Source of the DNA: Thermodesulfovibrionales bacterium
GTDB lineage: Bacteria > Nitrospirota > Thermodesulfovibrionia > Thermodesulfovibrionales > SM23-35
Direction: 5' to 3'
Assembly (NCBI GenBank): GCA_963716185.1
Contig: OY970295.1
Location: 3,163,316-3,227,315, forward strand
DNA length: 64,000 nt
Within the stretch, counting starts at the first letter, position 1. Every line of letters begins with the position of its first letter. Both the position numbers and the translations under genes were made by a program. The notes below the pieces were generated by a model. It was not told the origin of the DNA. It was given only the letters and a program-made list of their open reading frames with translations, and made no database searches. Below are positions 4,351 through 61,914 of this stretch, one piece after another.

Positions 4351-4487
4351 ATATGACGACTATCTGAAAATAAGTGTTCGGATTACGGGCAAAAAGGTGT
4401 AGCTGGAAAAGCTTTTTCAACGCATCTGCCCTCACAAATTGAATAAAAGTTATGCGACTGGTGGGTAAACGTAGTAAAGATTTTTTG

Positions 4488-4690
4488 ACCCGAAAAATGC
4501 GGTTGATCTCAGATTCAGGCAGGCATAGTGACATAAAAATCTTGACAATGCAGAATTTGGGTTTTTTTCGCCATATATTTCTTCTGGATAAAAATATCCG
4601 GGCGGCCTTGATATCTGATCACCCACAAAGGAGCTGCTGTCAAGCTTTTTCTGCCACTATGCCTCCCCGGATATTTAGTGAATCGCAATT
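4488..4690. mobile_element. MITE-like ~217-bp repeat, copy 1 (right end degraded)
   Basis: Starts ACCCGAAAAATGC and aligns by eye with copies at 8697, 48669 and 61698. Internal inverted repeat 4523-4547/4638-4662. Confidence 0.8.
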
Positions 4691-4722
4691 ATTATTAACC
4701 CGGCGATTAAATAGCTTAATTC

Positions 4723-8658: not shown

Positions 8659-8696
8659 TCTTCAAAAATAACTGAAAGAACTGATCCAAGTCAATT

Positions 8697-8914
8697 ACCC
8701 GAAAAATGCGGTTGATCACATATTCAGTCAGGCATAGTGACATAAAAATCCCGAAAGCCTTCGGGACAGAATTTGGGTTTTTTATGCCATATATTTTTCT
8801 TCTGAATAAAAATATCCAGGCGGCCTTGATATCTGATCGCCCACAAAGGTGCTGCCGTCAAGCTTTTTCTACCACTATACCTCCCCGCATATTTGGTGAA
8901 GTACATTTTTGGGG
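8697..8914. mobile_element. MITE-like ~217-bp repeat, copy 2
   Basis: ACCCGAAAAATGC...TTTTTGGGG, near-identical to the other copies. Confidence 0.85.
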
Positions 8915-8932
8915 ATTACGGGAAAGTAAAAT

Positions 8933-18806: not shown

Positions 18807-20162
18807 TTACTCTAACCCGTACCTTTTCAATTTTCTCCAGAGCGACACTCTGTCTATGCCGAGTATCTGGGCTGCGAGGGTCTTATTGCTACCGACTTCT
18901 CCAAGGACCCACTTGATATAAGCGATCTCCTGTTCTTCAAGAGAAGGTATCTTCCCCTCTTTTTTTCTGAAGGTCCTTATGCTCAATTCCCTGAGATCCT
19001 CGGGAAGGTGGGCCACCTCAATAGTGCTTCCGTTAGAAAGAGCAACACCCCTTTCGATGATATTTTCGAGCTCCCGCACATTACCGGGGAAGTCGTAGTT
19101 GAGCAGCAGGTTCATTGCATCCTCTGATATACCGATGATGTCCTTTTTCATGACGGCCGCGTACTTTTTCAAAAAATAATAACTCATGAGCGGTATGTCA
19201 TCCTTTCTTTCTGAAAGCGGCGGCATATGCAGGGACACAACATTCAACCTGAAGAAGAGGTCCTGCCTGAACCGTCCGTCCTTCATCGCGTCATGGATAT
19301 CCCTGTTTGTTGCGGCTATGAGCCTTACATCGACCTTTAAAGCCTCTGTGCCTCCGACCCGGATCACCTCCCTTTCCTGAATGACTCTTAAGAGTTTTAC
19401 CTGCATTGAAGGCGGCATTTCCGTTATTTCATCAAGAAACAGCGTCCCTTTTGAGGCCATCTCGATCAGTCCTCTTTTCAGCGCTATTGCGCCTGTGAAT
19501 GCCCCCTTCTCATGCCCGAAGAGCTCGTTGGACAGGAGTTCCTCTGTGAAGGCCCCGCAGTTTATGGCAAAGAATGGCCCTTCAGCACGCGCACTGTTGA
19601 AATGTATATACTTTGCGAACAATTCCTTTCCCGTGCCGCTCTCGCCGCTCAGCAGGACATTGCAATCGGTAGGAGCAATCTGTTTCGCGGTATCGAGGAG
19701 GCGCTGCATATTGGCATCCTGGGTTATTATCTTGACCTTTCCCTGATAGTTCTCTATCTGCTCGCGCAGCTGTCTGTTCTCCCTTTTCAGTTTTACTTTT
19801 TCGAGCGCCTCCTGTACAACTTGTCGAACCAGATCCAATTTAAAGGGCTTTGCAATATAATGAAACGCGCCCTTTTTCATGGTCTCTACAGCAGACTCAA
19901 GCGTCGCATAGCCGGTTATCATGATTATTTCCGAGTCGGGATAAAGCTCCCGGCATTTCTTAAGTATCTGCATCCCGTCGACCTTTTCCATCCTTAAATC
20001 GGTAAGCACAACATCAAATTGCTGTTCTTCCAGCAGTTTAAGCGCATTCTGCCCGCTTTCAGTGCCTGTCACCTCATAGCCTTCCTTTTTCATGATGTGT
20101 TCAAGGTTTTTCAGCGCTACCCTTTCATCATCGACGACTAAGATCTTTGTTTTGCTCTGCAT
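18807..20162 (-). CDS. Sigma-54-dependent response regulator (NtrC family)
   Basis: REC (ILVVDDE, TDLRM, KPF), GESGTGKE, ELFGHEKGAFTGA, FPGNVRELEN, HTH. ATG at 20162 overlaps the kinase stop. Confidence 0.95.
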   Translation of the reverse strand: MQSKTKILVVDDERVALKNLEHIMKKEGYEVTGTESGQNALKLLEEQQFDVVLTDLRMEKVDGMQILKKCRELYPDSEIIMITGYATLESAVETMKKGAFHYIAKPFKLDLVRQVVQEALEKVKLKRENRQLREQIENYQGKVKIITQDANMQRLLDTAKQIAPTDCNVLLSGESGTGKELFAKYIHFNSARAEGPFFAINCGAFTEELLSNELFGHEKGAFTGAIALKRGLIEMASKGTLFLDEITEMPPSMQVKLLRVIQEREVIRVGGTEALKVDVRLIAATNRDIHDAMKDGRFRQDLFFRLNVVSLHMPPLSERKDDIPLMSYYFLKKYAAVMKKDIIGISEDAMNLLLNYDFPGNVRELENIIERGVALSNGSTIEVAHLPEDLRELSIRTFRKKEGKIPSLEEQEIAYIKWVLGEVGSNKTLAAQILGIDRVSLWRKLKRYGLE

Positions 20163-21661
20163 TATGTTAACCCCTTTATAGGTAGTCGTATTAAAAAAGT
20201 GGTTCCCTTTCCGATTTCGCTGTCTACGCCGATACATCCGCCGTGTTCTTCTACAATTTCCTGGACGATGAAAAGACCGAGGCCGGACCCCTTTCCGACA
20301 TCTTTAGTGGTAAAGAACGGGTCGAATATCTTCGTAAGAGCCTCAGCCGGTATTCCCTCACCCGTGTCCGTTATCTCTATATCAACAGTATCCTCAAAAG
20401 GGCATTTGCCCGTGCATTTCCCGCGATATCTCGGATAGTCACACAGTTCCGCCCCTTCCTCCTGTGTTCGACCGATCAAACGTTTCCATGCTTTTATGGA
20501 AATTCTTCCTTCATCTGCAATGGCCTGGATAGCATTTTTTATCAGGTTTAAAAATGCCTGCTCGATCCTCTGCTTGTCTGCCCATATGACAATATCGTCA
20601 GGTATATCGAAAACAGTCTCAACCTTTGTAGGTATTTCACCCTTGATCAGCAATATTGTCTCTTCAAACAGGCTTCTCAGGATCAACCTTTCCTTTTTAA
20701 ACTCTTTATCCCTTGAAAATTCGAGGAGAGAACGGACTATATTTTTTGCCCTGTCTGTCTGTTCGTCGATCTGCGACAACAGTTCTTTTTTATATTCCAT
20801 ATCGGCGTCTTCGATCTCCTCTGAAAGTATCTGACACGATGAAGATATATTAGATAACGGATTATTCAACTCGTGGGCCACGCCCGAAAGCAGCGTCCCC
20901 AGGGAGGCCAGTTTTTCTCTCTGTACAAGGTGTTTACGCCTCAACTCCAGTTCCTTGAGCATCTTGTTGAAAGCGGCTGTAAGAGAGACGATCTCCATAT
21001 CTCTTGAATCTATCGATACCGTTTCAAGTCTGCCTTCGGTAATAAGCTTCATCTTTTCCTCCAGGGATTTTAAGGGCTTTACCACCATCCTTGACAGGAC
21101 CTGACCGATTATAATCCCGAGGACCGAAAGGATAAGGAACGAAGAGACGAGGATCCTCTGGATGTTATTGAGCAGCAGCTGCAGCCTCTTTCGTTCAGTC
21201 TTTGAAATGTCCTCTGCGATTGTTATGATTTCTTTACCCTTTTCTCTTATGGCCTTTTCCAAAGCCATCCGCTGATCGACGTTTTGCCTGTTCAATAGAG
21301 CGAACTCTTCCATCAACTGCTTGTATTTTTCGATACCGTCCTTTATCGTGCCTAATTGAGGGAATACCGCGAGTCTCTTGTATTCTTTAAGATTCTTGTC
21401 AAGTATATCCTGCGCCTTGTCAACATACCGCATATTCTCCTTATAGTCCTCTTCATGCTCATAGAGAAAGAAATTTTTTTCGAATCTCCTGATCTCGAGT
21501 GTCGTGTCAAAGAATTCGATAACGACCTCTTCGAATTGTACCTTTTTCTCTATGTACCAGAGTTCTATAATAGTGAATAACGACAGGCCGACAATCACAA
21601 TGACCCCGGCATAATAACCGAATGTGATCTTATGTCTGATACTCGGGTGAAGTTTAAGCAT
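20162..21661 (-). CDS. Membrane HAMP sensor histidine kinase
   Basis: Two TM segments, HAMP, GVAHELNNPL, NLIKNA, DTGEG, PFFTTK, GSGLGL. Confidence 0.93.
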   Translation of the reverse strand: MLKLHPSIRHKITFGYYAGVIVIVGLSLFTIIELWYIEKKVQFEEVVIEFFDTTLEIRRFEKNFFLYEHEEDYKENMRYVDKAQDILDKNLKEYKRLAVFPQLGTIKDGIEKYKQLMEEFALLNRQNVDQRMALEKAIREKGKEIITIAEDISKTERKRLQLLLNNIQRILVSSFLILSVLGIIIGQVLSRMVVKPLKSLEEKMKLITEGRLETVSIDSRDMEIVSLTAAFNKMLKELELRRKHLVQREKLASLGTLLSGVAHELNNPLSNISSSCQILSEEIEDADMEYKKELLSQIDEQTDRAKNIVRSLLEFSRDKEFKKERLILRSLFEETILLIKGEIPTKVETVFDIPDDIVIWADKQRIEQAFLNLIKNAIQAIADEGRISIKAWKRLIGRTQEEGAELCDYPRYRGKCTGKCPFEDTVDIEITDTGEGIPAEALTKIFDPFFTTKDVGKGSGLGLFIVQEIVEEHGGCIGVDSEIGKGTTFLIRLPIKGLT

Positions 21662-21879
21662 ATTACATTCTAAATATATTTATTGCAAAAGGCAACATTA
21701 AATGATTTTTATGCAATAGTAAAGACTGAAGGAAAAGAACCTGTTTATACGGGCAGACAAATATGTTTATCGGATTTGATGAATATGTTGTTGCATTCTG
21801 AATCGGGACGGCTCTAAAGTTATTACCGCGAAATCAGCCATAGTTTTTAAAGGCTTTAATTTATAAATATAAATTTATT

Positions 21880-21895
21880 TGGCATGAAGTTTGAT
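21880..21895 (+). promoter_or_regulatory. Putative sigma-54 promoter (-24/-12)
   Basis: TGGCATGAAGTTTGAT: GG-N10-GA with correct spacing but a deviant -12. Confidence 0.5.
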
Positions 21896-21924
21896 ATATA
21901 ATATTGGAAAGGAGGCGATCGAAG

Positions 21925-22101
21925 ATGAAATTTATGAAAAAATTAGAAAAATTGTTTGTGGCGGTATCCTTCGCAGAAGCCGGAGAGTTTGATACAGCAA
22001 GAGAAATTCTCAGGGAAGAGGATAGGCCTCAAAAAACAGACAGAATATCTCCAGCCGACAGGCCTCGGAAAGAGTTAAGGGCGCCCGGCATCGGAAGATA
22101 A
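21925..22101 (+). CDS. Small protein with FAEAGE motif
   Basis: RBS AAGGAGG, 58 aa, AVSFAEAGEFDTAREIL motif shared with two neighbours. Confidence 0.75.
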   Translation: MKFMKKLEKLFVAVSFAEAGEFDTAREILREEDRPQKTDRISPADRPRKELRAPGIGR

Positions 22102-22161: not shown

Positions 22162-24171
22162 TCAATGAAACTCCTTTATCAGTACCTTATCAACAATTTC
22201 CTGTATATTATCAACCAGGACGATCTCTAATCCCTTTTTAGCATCCGCAGGAAGATTTTCCACGTCCACTTTGTTCTTGTTTGGCAGAACCACAACCTTT
22301 ACTCCCGCACGTCTCGCAGCCAGTATCTTCTCATTGACTCCGCCGACGGGCAGTATTCTGCCGCTCAACGTCAACTCTCCCGAAACAGCTACATCCCTTC
22401 TCGCAGGACTTCCGCTCAGGAGTGAAATAAGAGCGATGGCGATAGTTGTGCCGGCAGAAGGACCATCCTTCGGAATGGCTCCGGCAGGTACGTGTATATG
22501 TATGTCGTGGTTCTCGAAGAAATCCTCGGGTATATTAAAAGAAGAGGCGTTGCTTCTTATATAACTGAGGGCCGCCTGGGCGGACTCGCGCATCACATTT
22601 CCGAGTGATCCTGTCAGGATCAACTCCCTGTTTCCCTTCATCCTCGCCGCCTCTACAAAGATAATATCGCCTCCGGCTTCAGTCCATACCAGTCCGGTCG
22701 CGATTCCGACGCGGTCCTTTTCATGCGCCACTTCAAAATAATATTTTCTGGGCCCCAGAAATCTCTCTACGAGATCGGGAGTCACCTCGATGTTCCTGAT
22801 AGTTTCTTTATGATGTACGAACTCGGTTGCGATCTTCCTGCATATGGTGGCTATCTGTCTTTCGAGGTTTCTTGTTCCGGCCTCTCTCGTATATTTCTGT
22901 ATTATCTTGGATATGGCTCCAGCCGTGAATTTAGGGGGATAATCCGATAGTCCCTGTTCATGTACCTGTTTTGGAATCAGATGCAGCAGAGCGATGCTCA
23001 TTTTTTCATCCTCTGTGTAGCCTGAAAATTCGATGATCTCCATGCGGTCCCTGAGCGGGTCCTGAATATTATCTGCAATGTTGGCGGTCACGATGAACAT
23101 TACACTCGAAAGATCAAAGGGCACATCCAGGTAATGGTCGATAAAACACTGATTTTGTTCGGGATCGAGCACTTCAAGTAAGGCTGAGGAAGGGTCGCCT
23201 TTAAAATCCTGGCCGATCTTGTCCGTCTCATCCAGCATCATGACGGGATTCGCATATTCCGCCCGGCGAATCTCTTCAATAATGCGTCCCGGCATTGCAC
23301 CGGCATAAGTCCTCCTGTGGCCCCTTATCTCTGCCTCGTCTTTCATGCCTCCAAGGGAAATCCTCGCAAATTTTCTTCCAAGCGCTTCAGCGATGGATTT
23401 GCCCAGCGATGTTTTTCCCGTCCCCGGGGGGCCGGCAAAACACAGAATGGACCCCTTTGCCGAAATAGTTGACATTTTTTTATCGATCGCCTGCTTGACG
23501 ACCGACCGCACTTCATCAAGCTTGAAGGGTTTGGCTATATAATGGAAAGCGCCTTTTTTCATGGCTTCTATTGCGGAGTCTATCGAAGCATAGGCTGTAA
23601 TCATAATGACCTTGATGTCGGGGCATTTGACCTTTGTCTTTTCAAGAACGTCTATCCCGCTGACTTTCTCCATCTTAAGGTCTGTCAATACAATGTCAAA
23701 ATCGGATGCTTCAAGTTTTTCTATGGCCTCGGCTCCGCCAGAAGCTGTGATTACGATATAATCTTCTTTTGTGAGTATGTGCTCCAAGTTTTTCCTTGCG
23801 ATCTCTTCATCATCCACGACCAATATCCGCGGCTTCCTGTTCATTACAAGAATCTTTACGGCAAGGTGTTCGAGGATTCTTTCCTTTACTTCGCGCAGTC
23901 CGTAATGTCTTTCATCCAAAATCTTCTCCGCCCGTTCAAGGTCAAGATTGTCCGAGGTCTTTTTGTTCCAGGGGAGACTGACAAGATAATCAACATAGGT
24001 GAGTGCTATTGTATATTCTGCCGTAGCAGGGCTCATCTTGGACAACATGTCCAGTTCTCTGTCGGCGATCTGGCGGACATGTGGAGGCATGTTTGCAGCG
24101 GCAATCCTTTCCCGGAAATCTTCTATTGTCGCAGTGTGCAGTTTTTCTTCGGATTTCTTAAATAAAGTCAT
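22162..24171 (-). CDS. lon: Lon (S16) protease with inserted response-regulator receiver domain and no N-terminal LAN domain
   Basis: [21 protein letters not shown] at aa ~114-231, [32 protein letters not shown]. Confidence 0.92.
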
Positions 24172-24312: not shown

Positions 24313-24415
24313 ATGTTGCAAATTGCAAACATTTTATATGTACGTGCAACAGGTTGGAATACGTTATCTGAACTGGGTAAATCTGAACCCCAGTAATTTA
24401 TGTTGCAAATTGCAA
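24313..24415. promoter_or_regulatory. Two copies of near-palindromic ATGTTGCAAATTGCAA, putative enhancer (UAS) sites
   Basis: Identical 16-mers at 24313-24328 and 24400-24415 in a divergent intergenic region. Related site at 21681-21698. Confidence 0.6.
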
Positions 24416-24541
24416 TAAATCATACTTTTCCGTATGTCGGAATCTCCCAAAAATTATTACATAAAATCAAGATGTTATCTAATTATTTCTGCTGGTATGA
24501 AATTTGGTATAGGAATCTTTATAGATTATTGAGGATTTCAA

Positions 24542-25036
24542 GTGAAGAAGAGAAAGACAAGCATGAAAGAATTGGCGGATAAATTTGAAGAGATAATGAC
24601 TTCGGTCGCCTTTGCAGAGGCCGGTGAGGTCGCCGGCGCCATGAGCATCCTCCACGAAAGGCATAAGGTTCTGCTTGTATTAACCGGCGAGGAAACAGAT
24701 ATGAAAGCGGCAAAGTATGCTTTAAACATGTGCAGACGCATCGGGGCGGGGATCCAGGTCCTGTATGTCACAAAAAATGAAGACGAAATGCCGTCGTTGG
24801 AAGAATGTCTTAAGGAATTAAAAACAAAGGGTATAGAGTATCAAGTTCTGCAGTGCAAAGAGCCGATGAAAGAAGAGATCATCAGGTTTATTGAAAAAGA
24901 AAAAGGTATCCAGTTCGTCGTTATTGACTCGCAGGATTTAAATATTGATTCAGATGGTGATAAACCGGAAACGCTGAAGAAATGGGAGGGACTTAATTGT
25001 CCATTAATTCTCGTTTCAGGGTTATCGAAAACATGA
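24542..25036 (+). CDS. Hypothetical protein with FAEAGE motif and USP-like alpha/beta region
   Basis: MTSVAFAEAGE, then KVLLVL..AAKYALNMCRRIGAGIQVLYV..CPLILV. Confidence 0.8.
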   Translation: MKKRKTSMKELADKFEEIMTSVAFAEAGEVAGAMSILHERHKVLLVLTGEETDMKAAKYALNMCRRIGAGIQVLYVTKNEDEMPSLEECLKELKTKGIEYQVLQCKEPMKEEIIRFIEKEKGIQFVVIDSQDLNIDSDGDKPETLKKWEGLNCPLILVSGLSKT

Positions 25037-25066
25037 ATAAAAACTTATTTAGAAAGGAGGTTTTTT

Positions 25067-25390
25067 ATGGCTGCAGATTACAGTAAGTCGAAGAAGAAGC
25101 CGATGGGAAAGATGGTGCTTTTCGGTATCTGCTCGGCAATCATCTATGGGGCGGTACTCTCATACCAGGGTCTTATAACTGCGTATTTTACGAGAGGTGC
25201 GTTGTATGCTGCCCTGCCGATTGCAGGGGCCTTTGCTCTGTCTTACGTTCACGGTCATTTTACAGGTTATTTCTGGTCTGTTTTAGGCGTCGAAGCGAAG
25301 AGAAAGGCTGTGAGTCCGAGGTCCGAGGCCGAACGTACCGACAGGCTGGAGCATACGCAACCGCACCCCCGCTTGAGAGCAAAATTATAG
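25067..25390 (+). CDS. Small two-TM membrane protein
   Basis: RBS AAGGAGG, SYVHGHFTGYFWSVLGVEA motif, basic C-terminal tail. Confidence 0.8.
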   Translation: MAADYSKSKKKPMGKMVLFGICSAIIYGAVLSYQGLITAYFTRGALYAALPIAGAFALSYVHGHFTGYFWSVLGVEAKRKAVSPRSEAERTDRLEHTQPHPRLRAKL

Positions 25391-25416
25391 GATATTGGAT
25401 AAAGGAGGGATAATAT

Positions 25417-26508
25417 ATGCAAGACGTAGCTCATGAAGTTGTAAAGTTTATTGATCTGAATTATGCGAATATATTGTATCTTTTCGCAGTCGGTTTTGTG
25501 GGAGGACTTGTAAGCGGATTTATCGGTTCGGGGGGAGCTTTCGTCCTTACCCCGGGTATGATGAGCCTCGGAGTTCCGGGACTTGTGGCGGTGGCAAGCA
25601 ACATGTGCCATAAGTTCCCGAAGGCCCTCGTTGGAGCTCTTAAACGAGCCAAGTATGGCCAGGTAGATGTCAAACTGGGGATTATCTTCGGAATCTTTGC
25701 TGAAGCAGGCGTATTTTACGGGGCCACTATCCAAGAGAACATAAAGAAGGCATTCGGTGATGCCGGTTCCAACCTCTATGTGAGTGTTTCATTTGTTGTA
25801 ATACTGGCAGTTGTCGGCGGTTTTGTTCTGCGGGATGCATTAAAGACTTACAGGTCAGGCAGAACAGATGAAGAAGAGAAGGTCTCAAAGATAGCCAGAT
25901 GGGTCCAGTCCGTTAACATACCCGGAACAATGGTATATTTCAAAAGCCTTAAGGCTAAGGTATCGGTCCTCTTTATCATACCGCTTGCCTTTCTAACCGG
26001 CCTGTCAGCTGCTACAATCGCCGTCGGAGGTTTTATCGGGGTACCTTCATTGATCTATGTGCTCGGAGCTCCGAGTCTCATGGGTTCTGCCACGGAACTG
26101 GTTGTTGCATTTGTCATGGGACTGGGCGGTTCATTCAAATACGCATTACACGGATTGGTGGATTTTCGTTTAACCGCGATTATTCTGGCCGGTTCTCTCT
26201 TTGGTATTCAGCTGGGAGCCATGGGTACAACCTATGTTAAGCCTTTCATGATAAAGTTTGTAATGGGCGCTATCATGGTGACCGTTCTTTTCAGCAGGGC
26301 GTTGATGATTCCGATATATCTCGCACAACTGGGGCTGATGCATCCGCTGAATGAAACCGTTGTTAAGACTTTAAAAAACTCGAGTTTCGCGATAATGGCA
26401 TTTGCCCTTCTCCTCGGAGCCTTTATAATTCTGAGAGCCATGTGGCAGGGACGCCGCGCGGAGCGTGAAGCGGCCAGACAGGAAGCTCTGGAACAGGTAA
26501 ACATATAG
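25417..26508 (+). CDS. Sulfite exporter TauE/SafE family protein
   Basis: GFVGGLVSGFIGSGGAFVLTP and a repeated GGFIGVP, multiple TM segments. Confidence 0.9.
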   Translation: MQDVAHEVVKFIDLNYANILYLFAVGFVGGLVSGFIGSGGAFVLTPGMMSLGVPGLVAVASNMCHKFPKALVGALKRAKYGQVDVKLGIIFGIFAEAGVFYGATIQENIKKAFGDAGSNLYVSVSFVVILAVVGGFVLRDALKTYRSGRTDEEEKVSKIARWVQSVNIPGTMVYFKSLKAKVSVLFIIPLAFLTGLSAATIAVGGFIGVPSLIYVLGAPSLMGSATELVVAFVMGLGGSFKYALHGLVDFRLTAIILAGSLFGIQLGAMGTTYVKPFMIKFVMGAIMVTVLFSRALMIPIYLAQLGLMHPLNETVVKTLKNSSFAIMAFALLLGAFIILRAMWQGRRAEREAARQEALEQVNI

Positions 26509-26510
26509 AT

Positions 26511-27365
26511 ATGGGAAAGTATAAAAAAATTCTTATCGCAATTGACGGCTCGGCATCGAGTCTGCATGCGCTCAGGGAATCTCTGAAGCTTGCTACGGAC
26601 GAAAAGTGCTGGGTAACAGTGGTTTCGGTTGTGCCGAGGTATGAGGGCGACCTCGGCGCTGTATGGGTGAACAATGTTAAGGACTCTTTCGGACAACCCT
26701 GTGAAATGGCTATTTCAGAGGCAAAAAAGATTGCCGAAGAGGAAAGGGTATTGATAAAGACTGTCTGTGAGGAAGGGGAGATTTACGAGCGGATCGTAGA
26801 CCTCGCCGACGGTGAGAACTGTGATTTAATAGTAATGGGAAGAAAGGGACGCAGCGAGGTAGAAAAGGCGCTCATCGGCAGTGTAACGGCAAGGGTTATC
26901 GGTCACACCCAGAGAGACGTACTGGTAGTGCCTGGGGTCTCAAGTATCGGTTGGAAAAAAATTGTGCTTGCAACCGACGGCTCGAAATATAGTGAACCCG
27001 CAATAAAGCGGGCTGTGGAATTTGCTAAATCCTATGACAGTGAATTGAAGATTGTTTCTGTTGTTGATGTAACTGAAGAATTTTTTGCGAGGGCTCCGCA
27101 GGCTGTCGAGGGTCTTGTGAACAAGGCAAAGGATTTGGTAGATGATATAAGGAAAAAAGCTGCGTCGGAAGGGATTAAGGCCGAAGGTATTGTAAGAGAA
27201 GGGGAGGCGTATAAAAGTATCGTAAATGTTTCAAAGGAAGAGAATGCGGACGCGGTAATATTGGGCAGCCATGGCCGTACAGGGCTTAGGAGGCTGCTTA
27301 TGGGCAGCGTTACGGAAAAGGTTATCGGCTATTCCCCTTGTCCTGTATTGGTTGTCAAGGCATAG
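26511..27365 (+). CDS. Universal stress protein (tandem USP domains)
   Basis: ILIAIDGS..LIVMGRKG..IGSVT and VLATDGS..GSHGRTG..MGSVT..CPVLVV. Confidence 0.93.
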   Translation: MGKYKKILIAIDGSASSLHALRESLKLATDEKCWVTVVSVVPRYEGDLGAVWVNNVKDSFGQPCEMAISEAKKIAEEERVLIKTVCEEGEIYERIVDLADGENCDLIVMGRKGRSEVEKALIGSVTARVIGHTQRDVLVVPGVSSIGWKKIVLATDGSKYSEPAIKRAVEFAKSYDSELKIVSVVDVTEEFFARAPQAVEGLVNKAKDLVDDIRKKAASEGIKAEGIVREGEAYKSIVNVSKEENADAVILGSHGRTGLRRLLMGSVTEKVIGYSPCPVLVVKA

Positions 27366-28049: not shown

Positions 28050-29624
28050 ATGTCACTCAAGAAGAAAATAACACTCAGCTTTCTTATCAGCGTATTTATT
28101 ATCGCCCTCCTTGCCGCGTTTGAATATGTAAACTTCATTGAAATCAAAAAAGAAATACGGATCATCGAGTTTACCGACACGGTCAGAAGCAAATCTCTCC
28201 AGATCAGAAGACACGAGAAAAACTATTTTCTTAAGTATTCGAAAACAAAAGAAGAGTCAACGGCCGTCCATAAATATCTGTATGAACTGAACAGCATCAT
28301 CAACGAAGGCTCTTTCGCCAATAAGCTCCTTGTAAACGATCTGAAGGCCAGTATCAAGGAATATGAGCAAAGCTTTAACACGATAGAATTGCTTGCGAGA
28401 AATCTATCGGGTGAATTTGATGAGTTGAAGACCTCTCATTCCAAATGGCGTGAAATGTTTCCTCTTATGGGTTCAATTTTAATAGAGCACCCCCTCCAGG
28501 GCATCGCGCTGCTCGAAAAGGCGTTTTCGCTGCCTGCCGACAACAAACTCATTTCGGGACTAAAAGAACTCGACTCCCATATAGATGCACTCAGGAAAAA
28601 CGGGGAAGGCATTCTCGCCATATCCGAAGAACTCGACAGGCTCGCAAGGGAACACGTGGATAAGACGATCCAACGATCTCAAATCGCAATCTTTATATTC
28701 TCCCCTTTATTTTTTATTACCGGGGTAGGAACAATAATACTGTTCAACAGGGACGTCGTCAATCGGCTTAAAGCTTTAATTGAAGTCGTGGAAAAAACCG
28801 GGAAAGGCAGTTTCTCAAAGGTGGCTCTTATCCCTCGAAATTGGAGCGGCGATGACGAGGTGGTGACGCTGATCAGGGAGTTCAATAAAATGGAGGAGAA
28901 GCTTGCTCAAAGGGAAGAAGAACTGGACAGGAAAAATAAAGAACTTTTCCAGAGCAGAAAACTGGCTGCTATCGGGACATTGGCATCGGGAGTTGCACAT
29001 GAACTGAACAATCCCCTTAATAATATTTATATTTCCACCCAGATTTTAGTACGGGAGATCGGGGAAACGTGTCCTTCAAAAATAAAAGAGGTGATAACCG
29101 ACATCCATAGCCAGACCCTCCGTGTAAAAAGGATTGTCGGTGATCTGCTCGAATTTGCAAGGGGGAGAGAACCCCATTTGAAAGAGGTAAATTTGTATAA
29201 TCTCATATCAAAGGCATATAAGTTTGTCGGGAATGCGGTAAATACGGAAAAGGTCAGGTTTATGCCGGACCCGGATACGGAGAGAACAACTTTCCGCGCA
29301 GACCCGGAACAGATGGAACGGGTCTTTATCAACCTCTTCACCAATGCCGTCGAAGCTATGTCGGGGGCGGGTGATTTGGCAGTCAGAGTAGCGCGGGAAG
29401 ATAATTTCATAAGGGTAAAAGTGTCCGACTCAGGAAAAGGAATGTCCGGCGCGGCGCTCGAAAAGATTTTCGAACCTTTCTACACAACAAAAGACAAAGG
29501 CACAGGGCTCGGACTCGCCATTGTTTTTAATATTGTAAATAAGCACGGCGGGAACATCAGCATTGAAAGCGAAGAAGGCAAAGGCACGACATTTACGATT
29601 GTTCTTCCCAGGGGGGAGGCGTAA
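28050..29624 (+). CDS. Membrane HAMP sensor histidine kinase
   Basis: IRRHEKNY periplasmic motif (paralog of 20162-21661), GVAHELNNPL, DSGKG, GTGLGL. Confidence 0.93.
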   Translation: MSLKKKITLSFLISVFIIALLAAFEYVNFIEIKKEIRIIEFTDTVRSKSLQIRRHEKNYFLKYSKTKEESTAVHKYLYELNSIINEGSFANKLLVNDLKASIKEYEQSFNTIELLARNLSGEFDELKTSHSKWREMFPLMGSILIEHPLQGIALLEKAFSLPADNKLISGLKELDSHIDALRKNGEGILAISEELDRLAREHVDKTIQRSQIAIFIFSPLFFITGVGTIILFNRDVVNRLKALIEVVEKTGKGSFSKVALIPRNWSGDDEVVTLIREFNKMEEKLAQREEELDRKNKELFQSRKLAAIGTLASGVAHELNNPLNNIYISTQILVREIGETCPSKIKEVITDIHSQTLRVKRIVGDLLEFARGREPHLKEVNLYNLISKAYKFVGNAVNTEKVRFMPDPDTERTTFRADPEQMERVFINLFTNAVEAMSGAGDLAVRVAREDNFIRVKVSDSGKGMSGAALEKIFEPFYTTKDKGTGLGLAIVFNIVNKHGGNISIESEEGKGTTFTIVLPRGEA

Positions 29625-29626
29625 GC

Positions 29627-30967
29627 ATGGTTTTTAAGGTCCTGATAGCGGAGGACGAGGAGATAACACTGAAGCATCTCCTTTCTACGCTGCAACAAGA
29701 AGGGTATGAAGTATCAGGCGTCAGCGACGGCAGGAAAGCCCTTGAAAGTCTTGAAAAAGAGAATTTCGATGTTTTGATCGCTGACATAAAGATGCCCGGT
29801 CTTACCGGCATTGAACTCCTCGAACATATTAAAGACAAGGATCTCGAAACCGAGGTGATAATAATAACCGGCTATGGCAGCATTGATTCTGCTGTGGCCG
29901 CCATGAAAGAGGGGGCGTACGACTATATTACAAAACCCTTCGACCTCGACGAACTGCTTTTAAAGGTAAAAAAAATCTGGGAAGAGAAAAATCTCAAGAA
30001 AGAACTTGTTGCATTGAAAACGTCGATAGGAGCGAACAGAAGACTCTCCGGCATTGCAAAAAGCGAGAGTATGAAAAAGATTTTCGATATCGTCGAAAGT
30101 ATCAGCGATTCCGACTGCGATGTTCTTCTGACCGGAGAAAGCGGGGTCGGTAAAAGCCTTATAGCCAGACTGATCCATTCAAACAGTAAAAGGAAAGACA
30201 AACCTTTCCTCTCAATAAACTGCGCTACCTTTACCGAGAACCTCCTCAGCAGTGAATTGTTCGGTCACGAGAAAGGAGCATATACCGGCGCAATAAGCAA
30301 GAAGCAGGGTCTCCTCGAAATCGCGGATACAGGAACAATTTTTCTTGATGAGATCTCGGAGATATCAACGAATCTGCAGGCCAAATTGCTTCATGCGATA
30401 GAAGACGGTGAATTTTTCCGGGTGGGCGGTACGAAACCCGTCAAAGTTGATGTGAGATTTATTGCCGCCACCAACAGGAATATGAAAACCTTTATATCCG
30501 AGGGGAAGTTTAGAGAAGACCTTTATTACAGGTTGAATGTCATGGATATATATATCCCTCCGTTAAGAGAGCGCAGGGAGGATATCGAACCCCTTAGCAA
30601 ATATTTTCTGCAGAAGCTTCTTCCGAAATCCAGTAAAAAAATAACCGGATTTACAAAAGAGGCGATGGATATTCTAATGGGCTATAGTTTTCCGGGGAAT
30701 GTAAGGGAACTGGAAAATATCATCGAAAGGGCCATAATACTCGAAAAAAATTCACGGATAACACCGGAAAGTCTGCCTCAGAATTTGCAGCTGTTCCATG
30801 TCGAAACGCTTCTTCCCGGTCAGTTTAAATCCATAGATGAACTGAACAGAGAATATGCCGAAAAAGTAGTTGAAATGCTCGGCGGCAATAAGTCAAAGGC
30901 TGCTGAGCTTTTAGGCATATCGAGAACGAGCCTCTGGAGACTTCTTAAAGAAGACGAGCGTTCATGA
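29627..30967 (+). CDS. Sigma-54-dependent response regulator (NtrC family)
   Basis: REC, GESGVGKS, ELFGHEKGAYTGA, FPGNVRELEN, HTH. Confidence 0.95.
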   Translation: MVFKVLIAEDEEITLKHLLSTLQQEGYEVSGVSDGRKALESLEKENFDVLIADIKMPGLTGIELLEHIKDKDLETEVIIITGYGSIDSAVAAMKEGAYDYITKPFDLDELLLKVKKIWEEKNLKKELVALKTSIGANRRLSGIAKSESMKKIFDIVESISDSDCDVLLTGESGVGKSLIARLIHSNSKRKDKPFLSINCATFTENLLSSELFGHEKGAYTGAISKKQGLLEIADTGTIFLDEISEISTNLQAKLLHAIEDGEFFRVGGTKPVKVDVRFIAATNRNMKTFISEGKFREDLYYRLNVMDIYIPPLRERREDIEPLSKYFLQKLLPKSSKKITGFTKEAMDILMGYSFPGNVRELENIIERAIILEKNSRITPESLPQNLQLFHVETLLPGQFKSIDELNREYAEKVVEMLGGNKSKAAELLGISRTSLWRLLKEDERS

Positions 30968-31038
30968 GCGTTCAATTATGAAACAGTAGTTTCGCCCTCC
31001 TTTTTAAAAATATCCTGGTATTTCAATGAGTTATTCTC

Positions 31039-31054
31039 TGGCATCTTTGTTGCT
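31039..31054 (+). promoter_or_regulatory. Sigma-54 promoter (-24/-12)
   Basis: TGGCATCTTTGTTGCT, a consensus GG-N10-GC, 44 nt before the ATG at 31098. Confidence 0.75.
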
Positions 31055-31097
31055 CTATTATTCACTAAGAATAAAAAACTCAGGAGAGAAAACAAAG

Positions 31098-31592
31098 ATG
31101 AAAAAGAAACTTTTATTTGTCACTTATTTTGATGAACACCCGGATGCAGGCCTTTCTTATGTCATAGAACTCGCAAAGGTGATGAAGGAAGATCTGACGA
31201 TTTTTCTGCTCAGAAAAAAGATGCTTTCCAGAAAATTTGATGACCTCATGACTGCGGTCACTTTTGCTGAAGCGGGTGAACAGGAAACGGCGAGGCAGGC
31301 AATTGCATACGCCCCAAAAAGAGCCGATGAGAAGACCGACAAGAAAATCGACGGCCTTTTGGAGAAGTGCGAGGAATCGGGTATTAAAGTCGACATTTAT
31401 TCTTCGAAAGCGGATGCCGTTTCCACGATAGAAAATTATTTTAAGCACAGGAACGGGATTGACATAGTGCTGTTGGGTCCGAATGTTACTGATTATTGTA
31501 ATTTCAGCGGAAGAACACTGAAAAGACTTTCAGACATAGTTGCAAGGCCTATAGTGACTATAGCCAAACAGACGTCAACCGTATCTGTCTAA
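31098..31592 (+). CDS. Hypothetical protein with internal FAEAGE motif, USP-like fold
   Basis: RBS AGGAG, MKKKLLFVT..FDDLMTAVTFAEAGEQETARQ..RPIVTI. Start chosen downstream of the sigma-54 site. Confidence 0.8.
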   Translation: MKKKLLFVTYFDEHPDAGLSYVIELAKVMKEDLTIFLLRKKMLSRKFDDLMTAVTFAEAGEQETARQAIAYAPKRADEKTDKKIDGLLEKCEESGIKVDIYSSKADAVSTIENYFKHRNGIDIVLLGPNVTDYCNFSGRTLKRLSDIVARPIVTIAKQTSTVSV

Positions 31593-31604
31593 GAAAGGGG
31601 GGGT

Positions 31605-32522
31605 ATGTATCTTTACTTGCCAGTGGCTTTAACCAGTATCAACATCTTGATTCCTGTCGGACTCGGCCTCGTTGTCGGACTTCTCTCGGGTCTCTTCGGG
31701 GTTGGAGGCGGTTTTTTAATGACACCGCTCTTGATAATGTTCGGCATCCCGTCTACCGTTGCTGCAGCAACAGACTCCAATCAGATCGTCGCAGCTTCTG
31801 TTTCCGGCACCTATGCGCACTGGAGGGTCGGCAACGTTGATTTTAAGATGGGCTTGTACCTGCTGATAGGGGGTTTTCTCGGAGGACTTGTGGGCGTTGA
31901 GTTTATTAAGGTTCTCAGGGCAATGGGGAACGCCGATTTTGTAATCAAGATAACTTATGTGCTGATGCTCGGCGTGGTCGGAAGTTATATGTTTATCGAA
32001 AGCTTACAGAGTATGAGGAAAAAGAAATCCGAGGAGACAAAGCAGGAAAAAGAGTCTAAAGTGGCAAAATTTCTCAGGTCCCTGCCTATGCAGACACGTT
32101 TCGAAAAGTCGGGGGTTACCCATTCCGCTATAGTACCTGTTTTTCTGGGAGCTTTGGTGGGAATACTCGCCGCAATTATGGGCGTTGGCGGCGGCTTCCT
32201 GATGGTGCCCGTGATGTTCTACATCTTAAGAATGCCTATGCACGTTATTGTTGGAACAAGCCTTTTCCAGATCCTTTTTACCTGTGTTGAGGTTACATTC
32301 CTTCAATCCTATGCAAATCACACAGTCGATTTTATTCTCGCTGTCCTTTTGTTACTGGGGTCGACCGTCGGTGCCCAGATCGGCGCTATCTTCGGCCGCA
32401 AATTAAAGGGGGACCAGCTCAAGATATTCCTTGCTGTAATTGTTCTGGTCGTGACCGTGAAGATAGTTTTTGAGCTGACTTTAAGTCCGTCAGTACTTTT
32501 ATCACAAGCAGGAGGTCACTAA
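31605..32522 (+). CDS. Sulfite exporter TauE/SafE family protein
   Basis: MYLYLP..GLLSGLFGVGGGFLMTP and AIMGVGGGFLMVP. Confidence 0.92.
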   Translation: MYLYLPVALTSINILIPVGLGLVVGLLSGLFGVGGGFLMTPLLIMFGIPSTVAAATDSNQIVAASVSGTYAHWRVGNVDFKMGLYLLIGGFLGGLVGVEFIKVLRAMGNADFVIKITYVLMLGVVGSYMFIESLQSMRKKKSEETKQEKESKVAKFLRSLPMQTRFEKSGVTHSAIVPVFLGALVGILAAIMGVGGGFLMVPVMFYILRMPMHVIVGTSLFQILFTCVEVTFLQSYANHTVDFILAVLLLLGSTVGAQIGAIFGRKLKGDQLKIFLAVIVLVVTVKIVFELTLSPSVLLSQAGGH

Positions 32523-47232: not shown

Positions 47233-48669
47233 ATGCTTGCAAGAGTTAACCAGACCGAAGACAAAACAAAAGAACAACTCGCAAATGAATTAGCCGACTT
47301 GCGTCAACGCGTCGCCGACTTGGAAGCGAAAAAAGCGGGACACGATACCCTTGACCTCGAACATACGAAACTGAAGGGAATTCTGGACGCAATGAGTGAT
47401 TACATCTACATTATAGACCAGTTCTGCAATATCAAGTATGTTAATCCGGCGGTCGAAAAAGAACTTGGGCCGCCCGACACCCTGAAGTGCTTTAAGTATT
47501 TCCACGGCCTGTCCGGGGAGTGTCCGTGGTGCAATAACAGGGAAATATTCGCCGGGAAAACGGTCCGGCAGGAAAGATATATTTCCAGTACCGGCAAGAC
47601 TTATGACGTCATTAATACACCCTTGAGGAACCAGGACGGAAGTGTCGACAAGTTGGCGATATTACGCGACTTCACGGAACGCAAGCACGCCGAGGAAGAA
47701 ATGAAACAATTGGCTGATGAGCTCAGGCGTTCGAATACGGACCTGCAACAGTTTGCTTATGCTGCCTCGCATGACCTGCAGGAACCCCTGCGTGTGATCG
47801 CAGGATTTGTAAAACTGTTGGAAAAGGGTTACAGAGGCAAACTCGACGATAAAGCCGACGAGTTCATTAATTATGCTCTTGACGGAGTAGGTAGGATGCA
47901 GCTGCTGATTAACGACCTGCTGGAGTATTCGAAAGTAGGAACAAAAGGCTTGAATATGAGGCCCACCGACTGTTTTTTTGTCGTGGACAAGGCCGTTTGC
48001 GATCTGCGGGCGGCGATTGAAGAAAGCGGCGCCACAATTATCTGTGATGAACTTCCAACAGTTATGGCGGACGTATCACAAATGAGCAGATTATTTCAGA
48101 ACCTTATCGGCAATGCGATAAAATTCCGCGGCATTGAACCAGTGAGGGTTCATATTTCTTCCAGGAAAGAAGAAGGTGAGTGGGTCTTTTCTGTGCTCGA
48201 TAATGGTATAGGAATAGACCCTGGGCAGGCAGAAAGAATCTTCGTTATGTTCAAACGACTGCATACCAAAGAAGAATACCCGGGCACCGGAATAGGTCTC
48301 GCAATTTGTAAGCGGATTGTGGAGCGTCACGGCGGAAGGATTTGGGTGGAATCCGGTCAGGGACGGGGCTCAACGTTTTATTTCACAATTCCCGATAGAG
48401 ACACGACTCCTTATGTACCTGAACGGAGACGGGAGCATCGAGTGAAACATGAGGTCTCCTTTGATTTTGACTATCAGGAACAGCGTTTTGCAGCCAATAC
48501 GATGGACTTGTGCGAAGAGGGGTTATGCATAAAAATTTCCGGTGCGGTCCCGATTAAGACAGGCGACTCACTTGATCTCTTCATCGGGCATCTCCGGGTC
48601 AAAGCGAACGCCGTATGGTTGAAGAGATTACCCGATAAGACGTTCATTGGTTTGCAAGAATTTCATTAA
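47233..48669 (+). CDS. PAS sensor histidine kinase with C-terminal PilZ domain
   Basis: FAYAASHDLQEPL, GTGIGL, then ERRREHR and DLCEEGL (RxxxR and DxSxxG-like). RBS AGGGG. Confidence 0.88.
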   Translation: MLARVNQTEDKTKEQLANELADLRQRVADLEAKKAGHDTLDLEHTKLKGILDAMSDYIYIIDQFCNIKYVNPAVEKELGPPDTLKCFKYFHGLSGECPWCNNREIFAGKTVRQERYISSTGKTYDVINTPLRNQDGSVDKLAILRDFTERKHAEEEMKQLADELRRSNTDLQQFAYAASHDLQEPLRVIAGFVKLLEKGYRGKLDDKADEFINYALDGVGRMQLLINDLLEYSKVGTKGLNMRPTDCFFVVDKAVCDLRAAIEESGATIICDELPTVMADVSQMSRLFQNLIGNAIKFRGIEPVRVHISSRKEEGEWVFSVLDNGIGIDPGQAERIFVMFKRLHTKEEYPGTGIGLAICKRIVERHGGRIWVESGQGRGSTFYFTIPDRDTTPYVPERRREHRVKHEVSFDFDYQEQRFAANTMDLCEEGLCIKISGAVPIKTGDSLDLFIGHLRVKANAVWLKRLPDKTFIGLQEFH

Positions 48670-48885
48670 CCCGAAAAATGCAGTTTATCTCAGATTGAGG
48701 CAGGCATAGTGACATAAAAATCCCGAAAGCCTTCGGGACAGAATTTGGGTTTTCTGCGCCATATATTTCTTCTGAATAAGAATATCCGGGCGGCCTTGAT
48801 ATCTGACCGCCCACAAAGGTGCTGCTGTCAAGCTTTTTATGCTACTATGCCATCCCTGATATTTAGTGAATTGCAGTTTTTGGGT
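48669..48885. mobile_element. MITE-like ~217-bp repeat, copy 3
   Basis: Terminal inverted repeats ACCCGAAAAATGCA / TGCAGTTTTTGGGT. Confidence 0.85.
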
Positions 48886-61606: not shown

Positions 61607-61697
61607 AAACCCTCCTGTGATTTAAGAATTACTGAAAGTATACACTATTGTTCGTTAAATGAGAACACTCTCCTGGCTGGCAGTTCAAGATAATTTA

Positions 61698-61914
61698 ACA
61701 CTAAAAATGCGGTTGATCTCAGATTCAGGCAGGCATAGTGACATAAAAATCCCGAAAGCCTTCGGGACAGAACTTGGGTTTTCTACGCTATATATTTTTT
61801 CTGAATAAAAATATCCGGGCGGCCTTGATGTCTGACCGCCCATAAAGGCGCTGCTGTCAAGCTTTTTCTGCCACTATGTCTCCCCGGATATTTAGTGAAT
61901 TACAGTTTTTGGGT
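61698..61914. mobile_element. MITE-like ~217-bp repeat, copy 4
   Basis: TA|ACACTAAAAATGC...CAGTTTTTGGGT|TA, flanked by TA on both sides. Confidence 0.85.

Follow-up and report, generated by a model that had tools for sequence, protein, structure and literature searches.

A LonA-type protease with an inserted receiver domain, encoded beside a histidine kinase and a sigma-54-dependent regulator in a Thermodesulfovibrionales genome

Can a protease itself be a response regulator, and on which kinase would it then depend? Two-component signalling and regulated proteolysis are usually linked by separate adaptor proteins. The question is raised by a 64,000-nucleotide stretch of DNA (the window) from a Thermodesulfovibrionales bacterium (GCA_963716185.1, contig OY970295.1, positions 3,163,316 to 3,227,315), where a Lon-type gene on the minus strand (22162-24171; 669 amino acids plus stop) encodes a protein, here called REC-Lon, that contains a receiver domain (REC). 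Downstream on the same strand lie the genes for a histidine kinase, HK1, and a sigma-54-dependent response regulator, RR1, and a gene beginning at 24542 diverges upstream. The idea that signalling is here coupled to proteolysis is not new, having been published in 2011 for orthologous Desulfovibrio genes (PMC3333781). DVU3303-DVU3305 of D. vulgaris Hildenborough were described there as a "three-component system" of Lon-containing response regulator, kinase and sigma-54 regulator, for which phosphorylation-dependent proteolysis was proposed (Rajeev et al. 2011, PMC3333781). The same source reports orthologues in Thermodesulfovibrio yellowstonii, Thioalkalivibrio and Dechloromonas, most with a Lon-containing regulator and a conserved binding site, and the same regulon is listed by Kazakov et al. 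2015 (PMC4641369). On the grounds of architecture, synteny and the statement of Rajeev et al., we infer that REC-Lon is orthologous to DVU3303.

The gene assignment rests on the open reading frame (ORF) listing, Pfam, NCBIfam and a phmmer search of PDB chains. The open frame has 676 codons, at most seven of them 5' of the ATG, excluding a longer N-terminus. Five segments follow one another, all on the minus strand. Residues 1-113 (23833-24171) form a helical region corresponding to the LonA residues just before the AAA+ core, according to alignments with B. subtilis Lon (3m6a) and with the genome's own LonA and to an AlphaFold2 model. Residues 114-231 (23479-23832) are the inserted receiver, recognized by PF00072, residue conservation and predicted fold, with D120 and D121 forming the acidic pocket, D164 as predicted phospho-acceptor and T192 and K214 as switch residues. 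The AAA+ alpha/beta subdomain (residues 232-385; 23017-23478) is delimited by the Pfam AAA match, motif positions and invariant columns, and its Walker A (GPPGTGKT, 247-254), Walker B (311-315) and pore-loop tyrosine (Y289) are all intact. The lid domain (386-460; 22792-23016) matches PF22667 at 405-456 (E 1.7e-19), and the S16 protease domain (461-669; 22165-22791), identified by Pfam Lon_C, keeps its Ser572-Lys615 catalytic dyad.

These boundaries bear out a preliminary description of the locus, made from the sequence alone, that had placed a complete receiver (about residues 114-231, with its DDE region, D164, T and K) in a Lon protein with intact Walker motifs and Ser-Lys dyad. Pfam Response_reg matched residues 116-225 over profile positions 1-110 of 111 (E 3.3e-28), AAA matched 243-383 and Lon_C 463-665 (E 1.3e-82). 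The best NCBIfam receiver match of the insert was AtoC (E 7e-28). The NCBIfam model TIGR00763 ('lon') scored 739.1 bits against a cut-off of 608.05, in two stretches, and the E. coli-type equivalog NF008053 reached 594, below its cut-off of 891. No Pfam match to LON_substr_bdg (PF02190) was found in REC-Lon, and pairwise alignment showed that the first ~245 residues of the genome's canonical LonA are missing, so that the substrate-binding N domain is indeed absent, as had been said. We considered whether such a domain might be encoded separately or upstream, and rejected this: the frame closes seven codons above the ATG, and the sole PF02190 match in the genome is the canonical LonA. REC-Lon is a LonA paralogue that has no globular N-terminal substrate-binding domain and carries a complete inserted receiver.

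Where the receiver sits is defined by two alignments. In the phmmer comparison REC-Lon residues 12-108 matched 3m6a residues 6-102, and residues 235-667 matched 3m6a residues 103-533 (E 3.3e-173 overall). Since the two flanks align to the adjacent residues 102 and 103, ~126 residues have been inserted at a site that is contiguous in ordinary LonA. The genome, a single 3.585-Mb contig, also encodes a canonical LonA of 806 amino acids (L009:626-3046) that is 56% identical to REC-Lon outside the insert and shows its alignment gap at the same receiver position. Both alignments uphold the earlier observation that the receiver separates segments joined in ordinary Lon. The further claim that it lies inside the AAA+ module held in part: there is an insertion, and its site is the N-terminal edge of the alpha/beta subdomain, between the pre-beta1 helix and beta1, outside the Pfam AAA core. 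The genome contains three more frames of 813-836 amino acids with weak, partial Lon_C matches (E 5e-10 to 4e-9; G000:C1:1722559-1722873, 1153566-1153877 and 419985-420296), which are putative Lon-like paralogues.

The fold was predicted as a monomer with AlphaFold2 from a 38-sequence alignment (mean predicted local distance difference test, pLDDT, 86; predicted template-modelling score, pTM, 0.78). Foldseek matched the model to LonA chains only, with target template-modelling scores (TM-scores) of up to 0.92, and no solved structure with a receiver insert was among these matches. In the model, the last of five N-terminal helices (residues 93-111) is followed after three residues by receiver beta1 (115-119), and the receiver is a complete (beta-alpha)5 fold of five strands and as many helices. 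The last of these helices, alpha5, is 21 residues long (218-238) and stops three residues before AAA+ beta1 (242-246) and Walker A. In the receiver fold both termini lie on the side opposite the phosphorylation site, so that the fold is suited to insertion. As predicted, then, the phosphorylation-responsive alpha4-beta5-alpha5 face is the part of the receiver connected to the nucleotide-binding strand of REC-Lon.

REC-Lon is not confined to this genome. In a search of sequences clustered at 90% identity, all of the 120 best matches carried both PF00072 and Lon_C (76-100% identity); the named ones were annotated as 'endopeptidase La', from Nitrospirota or Thermodesulfovibrionales metagenome-assembled genomes. 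We then surveyed loci with an alignment of the junction, scanning a single genome for each species. Among the matches listed there were 80 loci, of which at least 33 contain REC-Lon; these come from Nitrospirota and many Thermodesulfobacteriota families, including Desulfobacter vibrioformis DSM 8776, Maridesulfovibrio sp. FT414 and other Desulfovibrionaceae. The remaining loci match the receiver only, apart from L062 (Bryobacterales), which matches the REC-Lon query and has no receiver, and L075, a 2.6-kb contig that was left out. Loci L013 and L025 run off their contigs. Within the phylum of the window's own genome the junction (E <= 1e-55) was present in 69 of 401 sampled genomes (G000 included) and in 38 of 163 genera, with a patchy distribution: 36 of 64 genomes in one family, none of 75 in another. 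Response_reg, AAA and Lon_C also occur together in several ESM Atlas clusters, which have 62-144 members.

The residues on which both activities would depend are conserved almost throughout. D120, D121, D164 and K214 are kept in all 31 REC-bearing orthologues, and position 192 is T in 29 and S in two. In the Lon portion all 32 aligned sequences have K253, D314, E315 and K615, S572 is present in 31 of the 32, and Y289 is invariant. A quick maximum-likelihood tree of the AAA+-protease core placed all 32 REC-Lon rows on one side of a branch (99% in the Shimodaira-Hasegawa-like approximate likelihood-ratio test, SH-aLRT), with 39 canonical LonA rows and L062 on the other, the root being arbitrary; this is consistent with a single origin of the family. 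A few copies may be decaying: L048 has only the C-terminal 454 amino acids in one frame, and the phylum genomes G209 and G206 have in-frame stop codons within the junction match. A search of a representative library brought up predicted Lon-like proteins of 889-1379 amino acids (P0121, P0124 and P0127-P0131) with two or three tandem AAA+/Lon_lid modules and one Lon_C, along with P0126 (710 amino acids), which has two Lon_C matches. None of these has a receiver, and we set the multi-AAA+ proteins aside as having no bearing on REC-Lon, their top scores coming from summed AAA+ matches.

The company that REC-Lon keeps is also conserved. In the window its neighbours are HK1 (20162-21661, minus strand), a 499-residue kinase with HAMP, HisKA and HATPase_c domains by Pfam and the proposed kinase of both receivers, and RR1 (18807-20162, minus strand), for which Pfam gives REC, Sigma54_activat and HTH_8. 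By tblastn, 30 of the 33 REC-Lon loci have a full-length sigma-54 regulator; the kinase is present in 29, and the same number have both. The divergent operon (24542-27365, plus strand), delimited by Pfam and synteny, encodes a 164-residue protein with a weak USP match, a 107-residue protein, a TauE/SafE-type transporter and a tandem USP protein; its components recur as well, the 107-residue protein in 27 of the 33 loci, TauE in 26 and USP in 19, and the 107-residue protein itself has no Pfam match. At L039 (Desulfovibrio sp.) REC-Lon, kinase and regulator follow in order on one strand and the 107-residue, TauE and USP genes diverge, which is the published order of DVU3303-3305 and DVU3302-3298. 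The operon at 24542-27365 is likely the counterpart of DVU3302-3298. At L010 the protease gene stands on the strand of the transporter operon, opposite kinase and regulator, the reverse of most loci. Residues ~404-425 of HK1 hold a ~26-residue insert with three cysteines (C-x9-C-x3-C) in the ATP-binding domain, and among the kinase homologues only that of the closest relative, L011, has a comparable one, for which reason we rejected it as a feature of these kinases in general.

Do the two receivers answer to the same kinase? The close resemblance between the REC-Lon and RR1 receivers that had been noted was substantiated: BLASTP of REC-Lon against RR1 gave E 4e-43, with common motifs KNLEHI and VLTDL(K/R)MEKV and an identical 16-residue peptide, and the RR1 receiver, at 59% identity and 141 bits, was the best match of the Lon receiver among 38 other receivers of the genome (runner-up 47%, 99 bits). 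The identical peptide differs synonymously at 9 of its 16 codons, so that it has been kept by selection and not by gene conversion with the neighbouring regulator gene, which we rule out. Receivers contact their kinases through alpha1 and the beta5-alpha5 region. At these surfaces RR1 has the residue of the Lon receiver at 9 of 14 alpha1 and 12 of 12 beta5-alpha5 positions, as against at most 6 of 14 and 8 of 12 for 40 other receiver matches of the genome. Across 28 genomes the Lon receivers are 47-50% identical to the partner receivers, which is nearly the 54% seen within either family. Same-genome pairs average an identity of 0.4997, the permuted mean being 0.475 (standard deviation 0.0055), and none of 2000 permutations reached the observed value; the excess is concentrated at positions 127, 136, 160, 212, 213 and 226. 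Because of this identity at the docking surfaces and the covariation within genomes, the comparison points to one kinase, presumably HK1, shared by the RR1 and Lon receivers. The preliminary proposal that the kinase at 20162-21661 phosphorylates both proteins thus has partial support, with conserved neighbourhood, docking surfaces, covariation and the D. vulgaris genetics described below all agreeing with it.

The intergenic regions suggest what RR1 might control. Upstream of REC-Lon, the divergent intergenic region contains two copies of a palindrome, TGTTGC-N4-TGCAA (24314-24328 and 24401-24417), spaced by 87 bp, and a third copy lies between REC-Lon and HK1 (21683-21697). Exact copies number three in the 3.585-Mb genome, all within this locus. 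With up to one mismatch allowed, 26 of 32 loci have the palindrome in the 750 bp upstream of REC-Lon, 20 of them in two or more copies, and its density there is 2.08 per kb compared with 0.035 per kb elsewhere in the loci; the copies are mostly paired, 84-91 bp apart in the loci compared, and are present in Desulfovibrionaceae too. Of 31 loci scanned for sigma-54-like elements (TGGYAY-N5-T..), 19 have them on the divergent strand and 2 on that of REC-Lon. In the window one such -24/-12 element, TGGTATGAAATTTGGT (24493-24508, plus strand; three mismatches to consensus and weak alone), ends 34 nt before the gene at 24542, and another, TGGCATGAAGTTTGAT (21880-21895, plus strand; two mismatches), precedes a small ORF of 65 amino acids. 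For REC-Lon itself, with elements on its own strand in only 2 of the 31 loci, the scan gave no convincing sigma-54 promoter. We take the palindromes as candidate RR1 binding sites and the sigma-54-like elements as putative promoters.

That small ORF (21904-22101, plus strand) is convergent with REC-Lon and has tblastn matches in 6 of the 33 loci. It has no Pfam family, and it has in common with the 164-residue protein of the divergent operon (24542-25036) an N-terminal motif of ~39 residues (..FAEAGE..; BLASTP E 7e-08).

We consider it probable that these genes form a branched pathway in which HK1 serves both RR1 and REC-Lon, phosphorylated RR1 drives the divergent operon, and phosphorylated D164 switches the protease through the link between alpha5 and beta1. 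HK1, a membrane kinase, would phosphorylate RR1 and Asp164 of REC-Lon, the latter being the second response regulator of the 'three-component' pathway. Phosphorylated RR1 would bind the paired TGTTGC-N4-TGCAA sites and turn on the small protein, the TauE-type transporter and the USP proteins. Phosphorylation of D164 would alter the alpha4-beta5-alpha5 face of REC-Lon, and judging from the predicted fold the change could pass along the continuous alpha5 (218-238) into beta1 and the loop of Walker A. ATPase, ring assembly or pore access would thereby be switched, and with them the degradation of a narrow substrate set. The proteolytic branch would act in the same direction as the transcriptional one. 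For D. vulgaris, published mutant fitness indicates that the three genes DVU3303-DVU3305 act together: their pairwise cofitness exceeds 0.9, all three are detrimental in chlorate, and their target DVU3299 is noted to be a putative transporter of anions (Trotter et al. 2023, PMC10102598). Because that cofitness is positive, it argues that the protease there acts in the same direction as kinase and regulator. That HK1 is the phosphate donor, how the switch acts, that it activates and does not inhibit, and what REC-Lon degrades are points that we infer.

A bolder version of the branched pathway adds a geometry and a substrate, and would make REC-Lon the first AAA+ protease shown with an aspartyl-phosphate switch of its own. 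Asp164, phosphorylated by the same kinase as RR1, would pair the receivers of neighbouring protomers above the ring, replacing the lost N-domain crown and closing or opening the hexamer, and REC-Lon would then reinforce transcription by removing a dedicated inhibitor, for which the small regulon proteins with the common N-terminal motif (21904-22101 and 24542-25036) are possible candidates. We regard this version as tentative, with rather less than an even chance. A complex prediction for two copies of the receiver with its linker (residues 109-240) scored 0.27 where the mark was 0.42, which weighs neither way on receiver pairing.

Several observations weigh against the branched pathway. Four of the 33 loci have no kinase and regulator pair in their flanks; L023 and L035 are short or end early, and L021 and L027 are 18.8 kb. 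In the window REC-Lon is separated from HK1-RR1 by ~500 bp with an opposite-strand ORF, and co-transcription is not assured. A paralogous kinase-regulator pair stands close by (28050-30967). The same-genome excess of receiver identity amounts to a small 2.5 points, to which lineage-specific composition may contribute, and it comes from related genomes. The predicted structure, being a monomer, is uninformative on the hexamer. A scan of the window with the sigma-54 consensus at three mismatches gave 187 matches where 228 were expected, that is, no enrichment, so that the window's elements are usable only together with their conservation across loci. Our literature searches, with subscription journals outside their coverage, turned up no paper on the biochemistry or structure of a receiver-Lon fusion.

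Alternatively, the receiver could be a docking module. Receiver domains commonly dimerise through the alpha4-beta5-alpha5 face, and alpha1 contacts the kinase and not the dimer partner. The Lon receiver would pair with that of RR1 through this face, perhaps only when phosphorylated, and REC-Lon would degrade RR1 and so end the response. The 16-residue peptide that is identical in both proteins and under selection belongs to alpha4-beta5-alpha5, positions 212 and 213 covary within genomes, and a protease whose usual substrate-binding domain is gone needs some other recognition device. The special likeness to RR1 extends to alpha1 as well, however, where 9 of 14 residues are shared as against six or fewer in other receivers, and a cofitness above 0.9 in D. 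vulgaris is not what one expects from removing a regulator's antagonist (PMC10102598). We think this explanation unlikely, although it fares best among the alternatives to the branched pathway.

It is less likely still that REC-Lon receives its phosphate elsewhere, from another kinase or from small phospho-donors, its adjacency to HK1-RR1 reflecting shared regulation only. A candidate kinase does lie near. Some 4 kb off, all on the plus strand, are the genes for the kinase HK2 (28050-29624), the sigma-54 regulator RR2 (29627-30967), a 188-residue protein of no family (31026-31592) and a second TauE transporter (31605-32522); together, 28050-32522 is a second, paralogous module that has no receiver-Lon of its own. 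Moreover, REC-Lon and HK1 do not stand in one obvious operon here. Nonetheless the RR2 receiver is only 46-47% identical to that of REC-Lon, with 6 of 14 alpha1 and 8 of 12 beta5-alpha5 residues in common where RR1 has 9 and 12, and it is the homologues of HK1 and RR1 that stay beside REC-Lon across phyla.

Branched pathways with sink receivers are known, and the docking surfaces that the two receivers have in common would also suit REC-Lon as a phosphate sink, in competition with RR1 for HK1 and damping transcription, its proteolysis being incidental. Yet Walker A and B, the pore-loop tyrosine and the Ser-Lys dyad are kept in 31-32 of 32 sequences across phyla, implying selection on the protease itself, and in D. 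vulgaris the protease has a positive cofitness with the regulator, which speaks against its being an antagonist (PMC10102598); we find this explanation quite improbable. That the fusion is an artefact of assembly or annotation, a chimera with the neighbouring regulator gene of the kind that the preliminary description had named as its own refutation, has a negligible probability and can be dismissed: the genome is a single contig, the two receiver-coding sequences are 61% identical in nucleotides with a longest common run of 10 nt, and the same architecture recurs in the 120 best matches, the 33 or more listed loci and the 69 phylum genomes described above.

Elsewhere in the window, a dispersed direct repeat of ~220 nt occurs in four copies, 62-91% identical to the reference copy (4478-4697, 8696-8915, 48666-48885 and 61695-61914), and an identical 16-mer is present at three of the four places.

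If the branched pathway is right, no link between two-component signalling and regulated proteolysis would be known that is more direct than this protease acting as its own response regulator, and it would be a compact, engineerable phospho-switch for degradation. The family occurs widely among sulfate reducers and Nitrospirota, is annotated nearly everywhere merely as 'endopeptidase La', and has a genetically tractable member in DVU3303. The window is a clean and complete example of it. What is added here to the published proposal is the synteny across phyla, the docking-surface identity and covariation of the receivers, the conserved paired palindrome, and the predicted path from alpha5 to Walker A. 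This comparative evidence opens no new category, and it makes the published hypothesis sharply testable.

Set against the systems already described, the locus stands closest to DVU3303-3305. In both, a Lon-containing receiver protein adjoins a histidine kinase and a sigma-54 regulator (PMC3333781), and in both the divergent genes encode an anion transporter beside membrane, hypothetical and UspA-type proteins (PMC3333781, PMC4641369, PMC10102598). Desulfovibrionaceae loci such as L039 agree with the window in gene order and in the palindrome. The Nitrospirota copy differs in having ~500 bp, with the opposite-strand small ORF and the third palindrome, between protease and kinase. From canonical LonA (3m6a and the genome's own 806-residue protein) REC-Lon has kept the Walker motifs, pore loop, lid and Ser-Lys protease domain; unlike canonical LonA it has no PF02190 N domain, carries the receiver of ~126 residues before beta1, and falls on a separate branch from the 39 LonA sequences of the quick tree.

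The receiver itself is of the NtrC/AtoC type, and its arrangement recalls sigma-54 activators of the NtrC1/DctD/AtoC type, in that it stands directly N-terminal to AAA+, with alpha5 extended, according to the model, as a linker helix. In activators of that type the receivers control assembly of the AAA+ ring. In contrast to them, the AAA+ module of REC-Lon is of the Lon type and fused to a protease, there is no sigma-54 interaction or DNA-binding domain, and Lon sequence flanks the receiver on both sides. Besides RssB, another response regulator, CpdR, acts as a ClpXP adaptor in trans. RssB and CpdR are separate proteins that deliver substrates to ClpXP, whereas the receiver of REC-Lon sits in the protease polypeptide and the protease is Lon. 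The likeness to RssB with ClpXP (PMC7226468) is one of principle, namely that a receiver would make an AAA+ protease depend, in its activity or its selectivity, on phosphorylation.

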